From: Candidatus Falkowbacteria bacterium
Lineage (GTDB): Bacteria > Patescibacteriota > Patescibacteriia > XYB2-FULL-38-15
Reading direction: 5' to 3'
Assembly: GCA_016214745.1 (NCBI GenBank)
Contig: JACRNW010000008.1
Span: 14,512 to 78,511 of the forward strand
Length of the DNA stretch: 64,000 nucleotides
Each line of letters starts with the position of its first letter. The first letter of the stretch is position 1. Made by a program: the position numbers. Positions 18,001 through 27,000 of this stretch are shown one piece after another.

Positions 18001-21000
18001 CATGTCCTCGGGTTCTTTGTCAAACATAATTTTAAATGATTATTTTAATTTATCTTACAGTGAAATCACGACTACGCTCTTCACCTATCTCCCTCATTGC
18101 CGGGTAGAGAAAATCTGAGAAATCAAGTCCAAAATCAACCGTCCCTGGATAATCTGTGACGACATCAAAATCTCCCACATAATGCCCACCAACTAATGGG
18201 CCAGTCGTGCTAGTATAAACCATACGCAAATTATGCAGGCCTCTAGATAAAGTGTTAATTTGTACAACCCTATCTGTGTATGTGCAGCTCCTCTCACCCG
18301 TGACAGTAAAATAACAAGAGCCAAAGACAACAACTCTACCAACTTGACCAACAGAATGTCCATCAATGTAAACAGTAAATGCATCATCAGCGCTTCCACT
18401 GATATGCAACCCCACATCCAAACAATCCCTCGCGTCGTCCAAACATCCGTCAACATTACTGTTGTCATTTGGATCGCAAGAATTACTGATCCCGTCGCCG
18501 TCGTCATCAGGATTACTTGCACTAATAATATTATTGCAAGCCCGACCCGTGGCGCAGGTAATCGCGCAAGATGATGGGCTACAGCCCGGCGGACTCAGAG
18601 CAGTTGAGCTGGCCCAAGGATTGGACGTATCAACACAAATCCAGTTCGCAGAACTTGACGGACAGCTAGCCGTGCCGGGCACACAACTGTCGCACTGCTC
18701 TTGAGGCAAATTAATCGTGCCGTCGCCGCAAACAGGACCACTCACGGTTCGGAGAGTGCACTCTCGGCTGCAGTAATTACAAGTCGTCCCGTACGACGCC
18801 GAGCACGGCGTACCATTTGCCGCTCCGGAATCGCACGCTTCTATTCCGGTTCTGATTTGTCCATCGCCGCAACGAGAATTTTGACAATTTACGCAGGCAT
18901 CATTGTTATTATCATTAGCATCATCGCACTGCTCACCGCCTTCCACAATTCCATTGCCGCAAGAACCGGCCACGGTGCAAGCTAACCATTGGCCCCAGTA
19001 ACACTGTAAACTATCGCCGGGAGGTAAACAATTGCTAGTTCTAAACTTTTGATAAACACCTTCATTTGCGCAGACGGCGCAATGCATGCCAGAAGGACAC
19101 TCGCTATCGCTTTCACAAGTAAGTAATCCGCTCATTGATCTGCTATCGTCGGGTCTTGCTCCGGAATAACATACACCTCTAACTGTTTCGGAATTTCGAT
19201 CGCATTCTTCTTGCGGCGTATCAACCACTGTATTTCCGCAGTAAGGAGCAGAACCAACACAACCCATGGCGCAAATCGGCCGACAGGTGCTGCCCGAACA
19301 ATCGCTGTCTATACTACATGATCTTGCCGTGTTATTATCACAAACTTTTCCATAATTACCATTTATTGCTCCATCATCGCACCGCTCACCAACGCCGCTC
19401 TGTACTAATCCATCGCCGCAATAGCCGCCAGTCATTCGGCAAACCGTAGAACATTGATATTGATTTGTCGCCAATGTCCCGCCGCCCGGAATTCTTCCGC
19501 CGCCCGGACCGCGATCACAAGTTTCGCCGACATCAATAACTCCATTGCCACATGTAGCTAAACAAGTTGTCCATGTCGCAGGCCACCGGCAAGTAGCAGA
19601 GTCGCACGTCTGGCTTCGCTGCCCCGACCCACCGGTAGTGGGAGTGCACGATGAATCAATCCTTGTATCTCCCACTTCGCACTGCTCATACAAGCACGGC
19701 CCTTCCGCTCCACAATCAGAATCAGCTGCGCAACTTCTGCTGCTGTTCCTGGCGCAAACGCCAGTAGTTTTTATGATGCCATCACCGCAAATACCGGTAC
19801 TGCTGTACAGCACGCCGCTGCAAGTATTTTCATAAGTGATATAAGTTGGCGCAGAACTCCTAAACCAACTCCAGCTCGGATTAATTGTCGTCCCCAATCT
19901 GTATTCCAAATCAGCGCCAATATTGTAAAATCCGGTTCCCGGTTCATAACGGTATTGATAAATGTGCGACAAGCCGGGGCAAACATATGTTTCTTCGCTT
20001 GTGCTCCAGCAAGTATCCGCGCTGTATGCGCTGGGGCAGCCCAAAAATTTATTTAAAGGATCTGTCGGTAAAGAAGTCCCGAGTTCCTGGCCAAGCACTA
20101 CCCATGAATCCCACTTGCTCGTTGAGATGCCGCGGACATAAGAACCCGCTTCCAGTTTTGGCGGATAGGTTTTTACCGCTCTGTATCTTTCCACTGCTGC
20201 CTTAATTTTTTCCAGATCAGACAAACGCTTGATATCGCGGGCCAATTTATCTTTTGGCGAAACGCATAAATATTGCGTGGGAGTTTGCGGGCAATCCAAA
20301 TCAGCCGAACAGGAAATCGCCGCGCCGTCTGCACCGCGCGCCACCGCCTCAGCCGCGTTCTGGCAAACTTTATCATTATCTAAATTGATATTAAATTTCC
20401 AATTTTCCACTAACTGATTATAAATATCAATTGTGTCTTGGTGGGCGCCTTCATTGTAAGAAATTAGATAAACATTGGTATACAAATCAGCGTCGGCGGG
20501 CAACGGCGGCCGCGGTTGATTTGCCGCGGAAACATAAATTGTCCGGCCGTCTTCCACTGCTTCATACTGGTCAACGGTTTTACCCGCGGGAGACGCTGGA
20601 CGAAATCCTTGAGCCAAATACCAATCAGACAAAGCGAGATGATTTTTATTTGTATAAATGCGAATACCAATGGCGTCGGGCGAGCTCTGACAAGAACCGC
20701 CGTCCGGAGCGCAGGGATTACTGCCGTTGCAAGGCATTTTGGAAAGCGTGCAATAACTTCCTTGCTGAAACAAGAAATATTCTCTGAGCAAAAAGTCGCC
20801 TGAAGTTCCTGCCGGCGCCGGTGGATTGTTTATCACTATCTCCCCGGCTGGTCTGGCTGGGGGTTCGGGCAATGTCGGCAAATCATCACTAAAACCAAGT
20901 TCTCCTCTATCCTGGCAAAAATAAGTTTTAAAATTAAATTCTTCATCAATTAATGCTTCCCCGGTCACGCCAAAACTATTTGGCCAAGGATTTTCGCAAA

Positions 21001-24000: not shown

Positions 24001-27000
24001 GACAACCAGCGCCGCCAAGACAACTTCTTATCCCTGTACCGGCGGCTGCGTCGCTTTTCAAGGTCACTTGATACCAAGTATTTTGCGTCCACTTTCTTCC
24101 GAGTGGTAATAACTTAAGTTCAAAACCATCTTGGTAATCATCAACGTCAATAAATAAAACACTGCTGCCAGTAACCTCTGTTTTCGTCGTACAAGTTTGA
24201 TCTGAACAACTTTCAACTACAATATTTTCACCGCCTGTTATTGATGCGGGATTTATTTTTGTCGTAAAGCGTGCCGTTATTGTGGCGTTTACACAAACTC
24301 TGTCACCACCCGAACGTCCAGACCAGGGTGAAGGAGAAGCTGGTCCTGGCGGTGGCGGATTACTGCAACTTTCCACCACTCGCGGATAAACCGGAAGTTG
24401 GCCGGTGGAGAATTGCCAGAAGTAATATCCCTTACCCGCGGCGGCGGCACAGGTCGCGGCGCAACTCCCATCGCGGCAGCATTGCTGGCCGGAAGGACAT
24501 GTCGCACCCGCGCGGCAATCTTGGACTGAAAAATTAATGCTATTCCCCGTCACTCCCCCAGAAGTAACATTAACCGGACCGGTTTCTGCTCCAGCTTGGA
24601 CAGTAGTGGAAATTTGCGCGCCATCGGTCGGCGTAACGGCCGCAGGAGTTGCGCGATAAAAATTAACTAAAGCGGCTGTTCCAAAACGCTCGCCATCAAT
24701 TGTTACTGGTAAATCAACTGGCCCATTATCGGGCGTAATTTTACAAATTCCCGGACCGGCCGCGCCAGCGGCCACCGAGAAATTTTGTGGATCAAGATCA
24801 CTCGTGTCGTCGCTTAATCCGCCCGTGGTTCCGCCAGTTATAATTTTTAAAATTCCCGGTACCGCGTCCCTCGGCACTTTCACAATTATTTGATCATTTT
24901 TCCACCAATCAGCTCCGCAAGCCGCCGGAAAATCGACATCCGCTCGAAGATCCGCGCCACCCGCGCCTTTAAAAAATACCAAGCCCGTTTCGCTGCCAAA
25001 ATTGGCGCCAAAAATTGTTACGTACTCGCCCACTGGTCCGTGTGTCGGTGAAAAACTTAAAATTCTCGGTGCTTCGGCCGTGGCAACAACTTCAAAATTT
25101 ATTGGATTGCTGTTTTGGCCGCCCACTACCACCTGAACCGGAACCGTGGCTGGGGCGATAAGAGGAACCGTGGCTCCGATACTTGCAGTTGTCCAAAGTC
25201 TAACGCTCTCGGCCCGCGTACCGCCAAAAATAATTTCGCTCGTGCCTTGTGAACTGCCAAACTGTGTACCAGCGACAACAACTTCAATCCGCGGTTCGCC
25301 GCTCGCTGGCGTAACAGAACAAATTCCCGGACGACTAATATCGTTTACATCAAAATTTGGTAAAACCGGACCACGTTCATCGTCGGTTTGGTCGGTATAC
25401 TCGGCCGCCGTCGCGCCGGTTGGCGGCGGAACCGTGACCTTAACCGGACCGTCCGTCGCGCCGGTTGGCACAGCCACAATAATTTGATTATTTTGCCAAG
25501 TTGCCGAAGAAGGACATGCCGGCGTTCCGGCCAAAACATTATTGAAATAAACCTGGCCAGACGTCGTGCCAAAACTTTGGCCAAAAATTGTTACATAGTT
25601 TCCTGTTGCACCATCATTTGGCGAAACGCCAGTGATTGTGGGCAGTGTTCGGCAAACGCCGCCAATGCACGTACCGCTCCGACAATCAGCGCCGCTCGTG
25701 CAAGAACCTCCGTCACAAGTTCCGCAGTCAGCGCCGCCGCAATCAATCCCGGTTTCGTCTCCATCTCGGCTTCTATTAAAACAGTGCGCCGCTCGGACAA
25801 TCACGTCCACCCCTCCAGAAGTTGTATTATTTGAATCAACGTCAAAAGCTTTTGTTGTTAAAGTATGCCGCGAACCAGCCGTTACGCCGGTTGTGTCCCA
25901 ATCAAAAATTGAAGAATAATCGCGCGGCGTGACGCCAGTCGGCGCGTCGGTGCCAAGCGTTCCGCCATCTGCAAAATATTCCAAATAAGAAATTCCCGCG
26001 TCATCAGTCGCGTGCGCTTCAATTGATACTATGGCATCGGCGGAAACCGACTGCCCCGGATCCGGGTACGTTATTTCCACCGTCGGTCCAGTCACGTCAA
26101 CTAAATTTCCTGTTGTAAAATTTGCTGTACAATTTGGCGCGAGCCCGCCGCAAATCAAATTTTTTCCGTCCGTGCTCCTTAATCCCGTCATCACTTCTAC
26201 CGCAAACTCCTTATCGCCATCAAAACATTTTCTATCCTCATTTGGCGCCGGACAATTGTCACTCGGAACGAATTCCACGACCGTCCCCGAAGCACTCGCC
26301 GTTCCAAGAACCAAACTTCCGTCGGCCGCTTTTTTTACCGTAAAATTATCAGTTAAAGTTGTCGCGTCAACATTTTTATTAAAAACAACGCGCACCACGA
26401 CATTGCGGATTGGAATAGCGCCGTTCGGCTGGATGCCGCGAACAACAAAAGAATCCGACGGAAGACCCGGACCGCCCGGACCTCCTGGACCTCCCGGACC
26501 GCCCGCACCAGGCGTTATTCCCGTGGCTTCCATTAATCTATTCAAAACAAATTGGGTGATGCCAAAAGAAAAAATAATAATAACCAAACCAATCAAAGCA
26601 TTGACTAGAATTTTTTTGGCTGTACTGATTCTCTCTTCATTACCGCCGGCTGTCATCCAAACAAATCCGCCGTAAATAACAATGGCCACTGCCACAATTC
26701 CCAAAAATCCAAGCGCCACGCGGATAATTTGTGCCGCGACCACTCGAGGATCTTGGGTCGGCAAAGCTATTTCATTTCCCACTTCATTAACGCCAAAATC
26801 CTGGGCAAAAACTGTTGTGGCAAACAAAAACGCCCCCGTGACTAAAAACAGGGTGAAAAGGAATTTTAAAATTTTTCTCTCGTGTGGTTTCATAATCCGG
26901 CCACACTAAAAATTATTACTCAATATCCCACGTGCAACCTGCACCGCCCGCGACAGTGCAACTTGTTCCCCCAGCTGGACCAACTGGTTCGTAAAAACAA

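Follow-up and report, generated by a model that had tools for sequence, protein, structure and literature searches.

Patescibacteria, to which a large part of bacterial diversity belongs, spend their lives attached to other cells, and how most of them do so is little understood beyond a few cultured Saccharibacteria. In cultured bacteria, fibrillar adhesins are represented by the RTX adhesins MpIBP, LapA and SiiE. An RTX adhesin of Aeromonas is reported to contain 'split' domains (PMC12077191). For the candidate phyla radiation (CPR), the giant membrane proteins of the predator Vampirococcus lugosii have been proposed to serve in host attachment (PMC8080830). Pilins of type IV secretion systems (T4SS) and Ig-like proteins are among the highly expressed Patescibacteria genes in parasitic co-culture (PMC10936435), VirB2-like pilins and tandem pilin arrays have been described in the phylum, and the only experimentally tested Patescibacteria T4SS, from one Saccharibacteria strain, is essential for the epibiotic lifestyle (PMC12102498). 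Here we analyze a stretch of 64,000 nucleotides from a Candidatus Falkowbacteria bacterium (contig JACRNW010000008.1 of assembly GCA_016214745.1, hereafter the window), in which a single gene encodes a protein of 2947 amino acids (aa), the giant. We consider it probable that the giant is a membrane-anchored, disulfide-rich fibrillar surface adhesin of Patescibacteria (CPR) in the vicinity of Falkowbacteria and Uhrbacteria. In that case it unites two things that are usually studied apart, a conjugation-type pilin and a fibrillar adhesin.

The gene occupies 18050-26893 of the minus strand as a single open reading frame (ORF) that starts with ATG and contains no internal stop on translation. Based on the base composition of the ORF itself, the stop probability is 0.052 per codon, which gives a chance of ~1e-69 for 2947 stop-free codons; its GC content is 49.1 %, compared with 43.0 % for the window. 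The cysteine-rich repeats encoded within it are 60-79 % identical among themselves at the DNA level, and Tandem Repeats Finder reported only a 9-bp unit in 4.9 copies (26466-26509) and a 12-bp unit in 1.9 copies (26114-26136) inside the ORF. Because the DNA copies have diverged and only these two short tandem arrays exist, assembly collapse of the repeats is unlikely. The best match in the protein collection searched, P0001, is colinear with the giant at 71 % identity over 100 % of the length and was itself assembled twice independently. Since the best match is 71 % identical and no exact match was found there, the collections hold close relatives but not this exact genome, and we would rate the protein, judging by these identities, as a new species-level member of an existing, unstudied family. 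Intact orthologous ORFs recur in 58 independently assembled species loci, and the gene is therefore maintained by selection; it is real and under selection.

From the N-terminus to the C-terminus, the giant is composed of the following parts.

26804..26893, minus strand: Sec-type signal peptide, aa 1-30, hydrophobic core at aa 7-30 (hydropathy scan)
26528..26803, minus strand: VirB2/TrbC-type T4SS pilin domain, aa 31-122 (PF18895, alignment, hydropathy)
26456..26527, minus strand: Gly/Pro-rich, predicted flexible linker GPGGPGGPGGPG, aa 123-146, encoded by the 9-bp tandem repeat (translation)
23468..26455, minus strand: proximal stalk, aa 147-1142 (Pfam scans, PDB sequence search)
23129..23467, minus strand: cysteine-rich repeat triplet 1, aa 1143-1255, inside a Big_5 domain (TIGR02232/DUF4215)
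22691..23128, minus strand: second half of the split Big_5 and a putative Ig-like beta domain, aa 1256-1401 (spliced Big_5 match)
22361..22690, minus strand: cysteine-rich repeat triplet 2, aa 1402-1511 (TIGR02232, regular expression, Pfam scans)
21257..22360, minus strand: Cys-rich knot, weak Big_5 and variable beta-rich stalk, aa 1512-1879 (Pfam, coverage and identity profiles)
19784..21256, minus strand: family-specific conserved central domain, aa 1880-2370 (~490 aa), of no known family or fold (homologue search)
18617..19783, minus strand: distal cysteine-rich region, aa 2371-2759, with ~7 degenerate CGDG/CGNG/CGNT repeats (regular expression, Cys-density map)
18053..18616, minus strand: lineage-specific C-terminal tip, aa 2760-2947 (homologue comparison)

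The hydropathy of the N-terminus fits a signal peptide followed by a hairpin, with three hydrophobic segments at aa 7-30, 51-82 and 94-118. The signal peptide is likely cleaved after VFA and before QD, and a conserved AQD opens the mature domain in the alignment with stand-alone pilins. Within the pilin domain, hydrophobic helices at aa ~51-82 and ~94-118 flank a charged loop, MTAGGNEERISTAKK. When aa 1-260 were scanned alone, PF18895 (T4SS_pilin) matched at 30.0 bits (cutoff 26.6), whereas the full-length scan gave 26.3 bits, slightly under the cutoff; TrbC (Pfam) and NF045849 (NCBIfam) also matched the N-terminus, both weakly. The first 125 aa align over their whole length, at 45-60 % identity, with hundreds of stand-alone Patescibacteria pilins of 115-140 aa and retain every conserved motif column of these pilins, and the identity profile marks the pilin domain as the best-conserved block of the giant. 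These comparisons show a complete VirB2-type pilin domain, signal peptide included. The giant contains a pilin domain but is not classed as a pilin: T4SS pilins measure ~100-140 aa, compared with its 2947 aa, and neither the 64-kb window nor the flanking DNA of its relatives yielded VirB4, VirB6 or any other T4SS gene.

The closest stand-alone relatives of the giant's pilin domain occur in tandem arrays of 6-7 paralogous T4SS_pilin genes. GCA_037440105.1, the genome of the giant homologue P0005, carries an array of 7 such genes, one of which encodes 217 aa and the others 115-156 aa. The array coordinates are 10001-12511 in locus L087 and 7933-11794 in locus L088, with genes mostly of 115-156 aa, and no virB4 was found within 10 kb of either array. 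As a side observation, small genes of the PF05635 family ('23S rRNA intervening sequence protein', a four-helix bundle, Avd-like) immediately follow the giant gene in locus L003 (19427-19807) and are scattered inside the tandem pilin array of the same genome (L088, 7755-7922 and 9590-9958).

Beyond the linker, the proximal stalk consists, in order, of a Big_5-like domain, Big_7 (aa 270-346), a Cys-rich EGF-like knot (~aa 370-415), three IPT/TIG domains (~aa 417-800), Big_5 (aa 862-948) and the first half of the split Big_5. TIG (PF01833) matched in three stretches at 64.2 bits (cutoff 20.9), rising to 79.6 bits in a segment scan, and the PDB sequence matches for the stalk are to the IPT domain of cyclodextrin glucanotransferases. 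The Ig-like assignment of aa ~1330-1401 is a reading of the sequence only. In aa 1512-1879, the least conserved internal stretch, the Big_5 match reached 22.5 bits and stayed under the cutoff. Taken at the level of profile matches, the protein, which contains 148 cysteines, is shown to have a long multi-domain region rich in predicted Ig-like and disulfide modules.

An initial annotation of this stretch had described an uninterrupted 2947-aa ORF packed with at least a dozen Myxococcus-type cysteine-rich repeats, with TIG-like and other beta-rich domains in between. The ORF is as described, and the four repeats it quoted are all present, at aa 1143, 1219, 1402 and 1438. The TIGR02232 model, which had been named in advance as a test that could refute the annotation, recovered the repeats in 8 stretches at 135.9 bits (cutoff 20.8, E = 2.7e-40), and Pfam DUF4215 (PF13948) matched in 5 stretches at 84 bits (cutoff 27). 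The TIG stretches were likewise recovered, the quoted PTITGVSPNDGATGNYVTIFGQSFG falling at aa 417-441 within the TIG region, and Pfam also found other Ig-like beta domains, Big_5 and Big_7. A count of a dozen is reached if the ~7 degenerate units are included, but the canonical copies number only six, in two triplets (aa 1143/1182/1219 and 1402/1438/1476); a hidden Markov model built from these six found 8 repeats. The CGDG/CGNT variants reported toward the C-terminus correspond to the ~7 degenerate units, which start with CG[ND][GRT] and were located at aa 2369-2722 by regular expression and Cys-density map; this distal region has one DUF4215 stretch and is kept in most homologues. 'Packed' was an overstatement, as the repeats cover ~450 of 2947 residues, ~15 % of the protein, and the median homologue also has six. 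The cysteine repeats are a minor inserted module and not the defining feature of the family. Triplet 1 is an insertion in a Big_5 domain of the stalk, since its removal in silico (aa 1143-1255) restores a full-length Big_5 match across the junction (profile positions 3-105 of 105, 27.3 bits, cutoff 23.6). The same arrangement was considered for triplet 2 and rejected: deletion of aa 1402-1511 in silico restores no Pfam domain.

The central domain is marked by the motifs CENPWP, DAIGIRIY, YTNIYLISYNEGA, PKDKLxRD...YP and LPxDPxNKF, and aa 1880-2370 gave neither a Pfam match nor a PDB sequence match. Its AlphaFold2 (AF2) model has a mean predicted local distance difference test score (pLDDT) of 74 and a predicted template modelling score (pTM) of 0.76, and a Foldseek search of the model against PDB and BFVD returned nothing at E<=1e-3. 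Searched alone, the domain retrieves 1430 clusters at 50 % identity (E<=1e-3), 871 of them at E<=1e-30, and thus represents a well-populated family without a known fold or function. A type IV pilin/GspG-like globular domain was considered for aa ~2210-2340 (PKDKLARD...YP...LPTDPLNKF...YQY) and rejected, with no Pfam match and a Foldseek TM score below 0.3. The model also produced weak, non-significant Foldseek matches to PsbP structures (E 0.2-0.8).

In the tip at the distal end, a TSP3-like Asp-rich motif, NPDDDGDGISNSCDPNDNSNVDGC, precedes a beta-rich module of ~130 aa. This tip is shared with only three database proteins (P0001, P0002 and P0373) and only two loci (L007 and L008). No Pfam match was obtained for it; a weak FGF1-like match (E = 0.04) hints at a beta-trefoil, and the AF2 model, at pLDDT 46, is too low for use. 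In multi-segment BLAST alignments, aa 1 to ~2750 are covered by all 120 of the 120 homologues listed, while the last ~200 aa are covered by 2-17 of these 120, with numbers decreasing toward the end. Compared with P0001, the first 400 residues are 83-89 % identical and the last 150 only ~50 %, and in more distant homologues the last ~150 residues are at 8-19 %, which is background. The tails of relatives vary in length (median 480 aa) and include a VWA domain (2823-2990 of 3107), a malectin domain (2733-2899 of 3191) and CarboxypepD_reg (3001-3050 of 3340). The homologue alignments show a conservation gradient, conserved proximally and variable distally, with swapping of binding modules. The C-terminus (...EERSRDFTVR) is hydrophilic and the translation contains no C-terminal anchor. 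Pfam and NCBIfam scans found no canonical anchor (LPXTG, type I secretion (T1SS) signal with retention module, or autotransporter barrel), and Pfam scans found no RTX nonapeptide repeats or HemolysinCabind match in the giant.

Diversification of the tip by a diversity-generating retroelement (DGR) was examined and rejected, as the window contains no pair of template and variable repeats and no reverse transcriptase. A DGR does occur in one related locus, L004 (GCA_004297205.1), where a 125-nt repeat pair (1392-1516 and 1832-1956) has 21 of its 22 mismatches at template adenines and adjoins bAvd and RVT_1 genes; the syntenic block starts with lepB ~1.4 kb farther downstream. Its variable copy is the 3' end of a 256-aa gene without a Pfam match, not of the giant gene.

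The giant gene belongs to a four-gene cassette, whose other members are the following.

26916..28805, minus strand: upstream pilin-Big_5 gene, 626-629 aa, with T4SS_pilin (29.4 bits) and three Big_5 domains, 22 nt from the giant gene
17386..18027, minus strand: first downstream gene, 213 aa, single-pass membrane protein with three TSP3_bac repeats of the Ca-binding type (Pfam, 70.8 bits)
16385..17362, minus strand: second downstream gene, 325 aa, single-pass membrane protein with a CGDG Cys motif, TSP3-like repeats and a conserved C-terminal domain

The gaps within the cassette measure 18-23 nt, and the 213-aa gene starts 22 nt past the stop codon of the giant gene. We compared 80 species loci, some of which are too short to show the full gene order; the upstream gene is present in 61 of the 80, the 213-aa TSP3 gene in 66 and the 325-aa gene in 65. 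On one strand the order is lepB - hisS - rpsU - (yqeY) - small pilin protein - giant - TSP3 protein(s) - ~330-aa protein - ybeY - dgkA - ftsA - ftsZ, as seen in five annotated relatives and in essentially all sufficiently long loci of the comparison. At least 58 of the 80 loci retain an intact giant gene at this chromosomal position. Because this housekeeping site is fixed across species, the cassette is inherited vertically and does not lie on a mobile island. The pilin domains of the upstream gene and of the giant are paralogous (66 % protein identity, 77 % DNA identity). Within two distant genomes they are 70 % (L004) and 58 % (L005) identical, above any cross-genome pair, which points to co-evolution or gene conversion. 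In the 325-aa protein, the C-terminal 140 aa (16385-16807, minus strand) match PsbP_2 (PF18933) weakly (E = 7e-4, 20.1 bits, cutoff 27); this resemblance and that of the central-domain model to PsbP are probably a coincidence.

The first homology search yielded hundreds of proteins of 2000-4700 aa that share T4SS_pilin, Big_7, TIG, Big_5 and DUF4215. They come almost only from Patescibacteria metagenome-assembled genomes labelled Falkow-, Uhr- or Magasanikbacteria or 'Parcubacteria group', and many more records bear placeholder titles of the form 'uncultured Gammaproteobacteria ... binchicken'. Their database names are generic: 'DUF4215 domain-containing', 'Ig-like domain-containing' or 'cysteine-rich repeat protein'. 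A scan of one genome per species detected the family in no fewer than 129 of them; across the 58 loci where the contig end does not cut the gene, the median length of the stop-free frame is ~3100 aa. Shorter orthologues (~1100-2200 aa) occupy the same locus in L015, L025, L032, L036, L037, L050, L060, L076, L078, L083 and L086; several of them (e.g. L015, L032, L036, L076 and L083) keep the pilin and central domains and leave the distal Cys-rich region or parts of the stalk unmatched. Patescibacteria genomes typically measure ~1 Mb, and if this is assumed for the present genome, the giant gene takes up ~1 % of it. The initial annotation was right to suppose maintenance by selection, which the intact orthologues at 58 independently assembled loci bear out. 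Its view that the architecture is typical of eukaryote-like adhesins and rare in small genomes does not hold, given hundreds of full-architecture homologues, at least 129 species genomes and 1430 central-domain clusters; the architecture instead characterizes one branch of bacteria with small genomes. The giant may plausibly act like an adhesin, but the label 'eukaryote-like' is unsupported. The pilin domain, the upstream paralogue, the TSP3 partners, the orphan central domain, the variable tip and the fixed chromosomal position all lie beyond that annotation.

Combining these features, we propose the following model of the giant as a surface adhesin. The protein would be exported by Sec and its signal peptide cleaved, after which the two-helix hairpin would be retained in the cytoplasmic membrane with both ends outside, a topology suggested by VirB2 pilins. 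For this hairpin, the domain homology and the hydrophobic segments are shown. Past the Gly/Pro linker, ~2800 extracellular residues of Ig-like modules (Big_5, Big_7, TIG) and stiffening cysteine-rich knots would form a long stalk, with the conserved orphan domain two-thirds along it. Both cysteine-repeat triplets may project from loops of stalk domains, as shown for triplet 1 only. Judged roughly from the number of domains, the fiber could measure on the order of ~100 nm. At its end, the fast-evolving, lineage-specific C-terminal module would recognize a ligand carried by another cell, of which the episymbiont's host is the likeliest. The smaller pilin-anchored paralogue and the two TSP3 membrane proteins probably form the base of the structure. 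The giant thus offers a concrete, testable candidate for the structure by which a major uncultured clade attaches, and host range may be set by its variable tip.

Several points weigh against this proposal. Host-cell contact, the most likely role, is argued by analogy with other systems. No recognized adhesive or ligand-binding domain was identified in this giant by Pfam, and the tip model (pLDDT 46) is too low in confidence for use. Adhesins that govern host specificity are often mobile or present in several copies; strict vertical inheritance, with what seems to be a single copy at each locus, is atypical of them. With its 148 cysteines, the giant would call for a system that forms disulfides outside the cell, for which no search was made. 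Finally, our full-text literature searches returned no paper describing this family.

The pilin domain probably does more than anchor the protein, because no other part is as well conserved and none of the free-pilin motifs has been lost from it; it may dock onto the small array pilins or co-assemble with them. Carried further, this leads to an alternative that we regard as possible but rather doubtful, in which the giant and its 629-aa paralogue are true modular pilins, sparse subunits at the tip or base of a VirB2-type filament of array pilins. The T4SS-like machine would then be encoded elsewhere, and the 2800-aa module would serve as an adhesin carried on the pilus, much as in modular type IV pilins. 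It overlaps with the adhesin proposal and differs solely in the job given to the N-terminal domain. The 125-aa N-terminus is a complete homologue of free pilins, with 45-60 % identity and all motif columns, and its conservation exceeds the need of a passive membrane anchor; moreover, the pilin domains of both cassette genes co-vary within genomes. In the case of F-pilin, extensions at the C-terminus are exposed on the surface of the pilus. A 7-gene pilin array accompanies a giant in GCA_037440105.1 and a second array is found in L087, and pilin arrays and T4SS are widespread in Patescibacteria (PMC12102498). However, an appendage of 2800 aa on a pilin of ~90 aa would sterically block regular helical packing, and a VirB2 pilus has so far not been demonstrated in this clade. 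T4SS genes are likewise missing from the 64-kb window and the relatives' flanks, and the examined array loci also lack VirB4 within 10 kb. A more specific version, in which the giant and its 629-aa neighbor nucleate or cap an array-pilin filament and the cassette with its TSP3 proteins forms a host-contact organelle, appears more doubtful still. If it were true, Falkow-, Uhr- and Magasanikbacteria would have a surface machine without a described counterpart, and the 490-aa central domain would be a new fold.

The chromosomal setting raises the alternative of a core envelope or division scaffold, either an S-layer-like coat or a structure of cell shape or septum, instead of an adhesin. This would explain why the gene is universal, confined to a single locus and inherited vertically beside ftsA and ftsZ. 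The fixed same-strand site between rpsU-yqeY and ybeY-dgkA-ftsA-ftsZ in essentially all long-enough loci of the 80 and the high conservation of the proximal two-thirds of the protein agree with it. Yet ybeY and dgkA, which come from a different conserved housekeeping cluster, separate the cassette from ftsA. In Bacillus, the rpsU...ybeY-dgkA-era region is a reminder that adjacency alone may not be functional. A variable tip that swaps modules is typical of ligand recognition and not of a lattice, and Pfam scans found no S-layer (SLH or similar) or peptidoglycan-binding domain. We consider a scaffold improbable.

A polymorphic toxin or secreted effector with a variable C-terminal toxin domain would account for a C-terminal module that varies among otherwise conserved giants, but it is highly improbable: the tails of relatives are binding modules (VWA, malectin, CarboxypepD_reg), the downstream genes encode conserved TSP3 membrane proteins and not variable immunity genes, and Pfam and NCBIfam scans detected no Rhs, PT-domain or toxin family. 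Least credible of all is an assembly artefact or pseudogene, with collapsed repeats or a chimeric ORF, for which the unmatched exact sequence (best 71 %) might speak, since the repeat copies have diverged without long tandem repeats, the stop-free run has a chance of ~1e-69, and the protein is colinear with the twice-assembled P0001 over 100 % of its length and with relatives in dozens of species.

In the rest of the 64-kb window, the sizeable ORFs with a Pfam match are all chromosomal genes of housekeeping or metabolism, including ftsA, ftsZ, nrdD, hisS, lepB, secY, topA, dprA, lon, parAB, scpAB, relA/spoT and several tRNA synthetases, and two small ORFs have no match. We noted an S-adenosylmethionine synthetase of the archaeal type (6455-7693, minus strand; PF01941, 313.6 bits) instead of the bacterial MetK type. 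Two fusion proteins are unusual, one joining a glycosyltransferase family 2 domain to an F420-0:gamma-glutamyl ligase (CofE-like) domain (3139-5010, minus strand) and the other a xylose-isomerase-like TIM barrel (AP_endonuc_2) to a GFO/IDH/MocA oxidoreductase (7702-9516, minus strand). A tRNA-like element (31774-31842, minus strand) adjoins tRNA-Val(cac) (31855-31930, minus strand), to which its first 58 nt are 91 % identical; it scored 35.8 bits in Rfam, barely over the gathering score, was not called by ARAGORN, and may be a diverged or decaying tandem tRNA duplicate. ARAGORN called a tRNA-Met (44728-44802) that is missing from the Rfam gathering list. In topA, on the plus strand, an 80-nt direct repeat (39282-39361 and 39423-39502, 76 % identity) corresponds to repeated C4 zinc-ribbon domains and is ordinary.

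Compared with known systems, the giant is closest to other Patescibacteria giants. P0001, P0005 and P0044, the last named 'Multiple EGF-like-domain protein 3' in Magasanikbacteria GW2011_GWA2_50, share its full architecture, cassette and chromosomal position, and only the C-terminal tip and small insertions differ. The stand-alone PF18895 pilins have the same signal peptide, two helices and loop motif as its N-terminal 125 aa; they measure 115-140 aa, occur in arrays and are often near virB4, whereas the giant adds a C-terminal extension of ~2800 aa and lies in a housekeeping locus without T4SS genes. Myxococcus-type TIGR02232 proteins share the unit CGNGxxExGExCDDGNxxxxDGCSxxC, which gives a strong model match in the giant, but there the repeat is a minor module in two triplets, in an otherwise unrelated architecture and a different phylum.

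Among very large surface proteins of ultra-small, host-dependent bacteria, the giants of Vampirococcus lugosii (PMC8080830) and of Omnitrophota (bioRxiv 10.1101/2023.11.21.568195) have a proposed role in host recognition and attachment, as does the present giant. The Vampirococcus proteins have different domains (WD40, PKD, integrin and DUF11), and the Omnitrophota proteins are described as much larger and encoded beside a secretion locus resembling type II secretion and type IV pilus systems. The searched text of the two papers mentions neither a VirB2-type (T4SS) pilin fusion nor cysteine-rich repeats, and uses 'pilin' in the context of type IV pili only. Our full-text literature searches likewise turned up no description of the cassette, of its constant location or of any pilin with a giant ectodomain attached.

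The fibrillar adhesins MpIBP, LapA and SiiE and the Aeromonas RTX adhesin resemble the giant in their long Ig-like stalk and split-domain accessory modules. A distal ligand-binding end and Ca-binding motifs are further points of likeness, with ligand binding by the giant being presumed. Pfam and NCBIfam scans found in the giant none of the RTX repeats, T1SS signal, LPXTG motif or outer-membrane retention module of RTX and other fibrillar adhesins. It has instead an N-terminal pilin hairpin as its putative anchor, and its stalk is built of diverse domains and not of near-identical tandem copies. We therefore rate the system as a variation on the described fibrillar adhesins, set apart by an N-terminal anchor of the conjugation-pilin type, an orphan central domain and a cassette in the chromosomal core.

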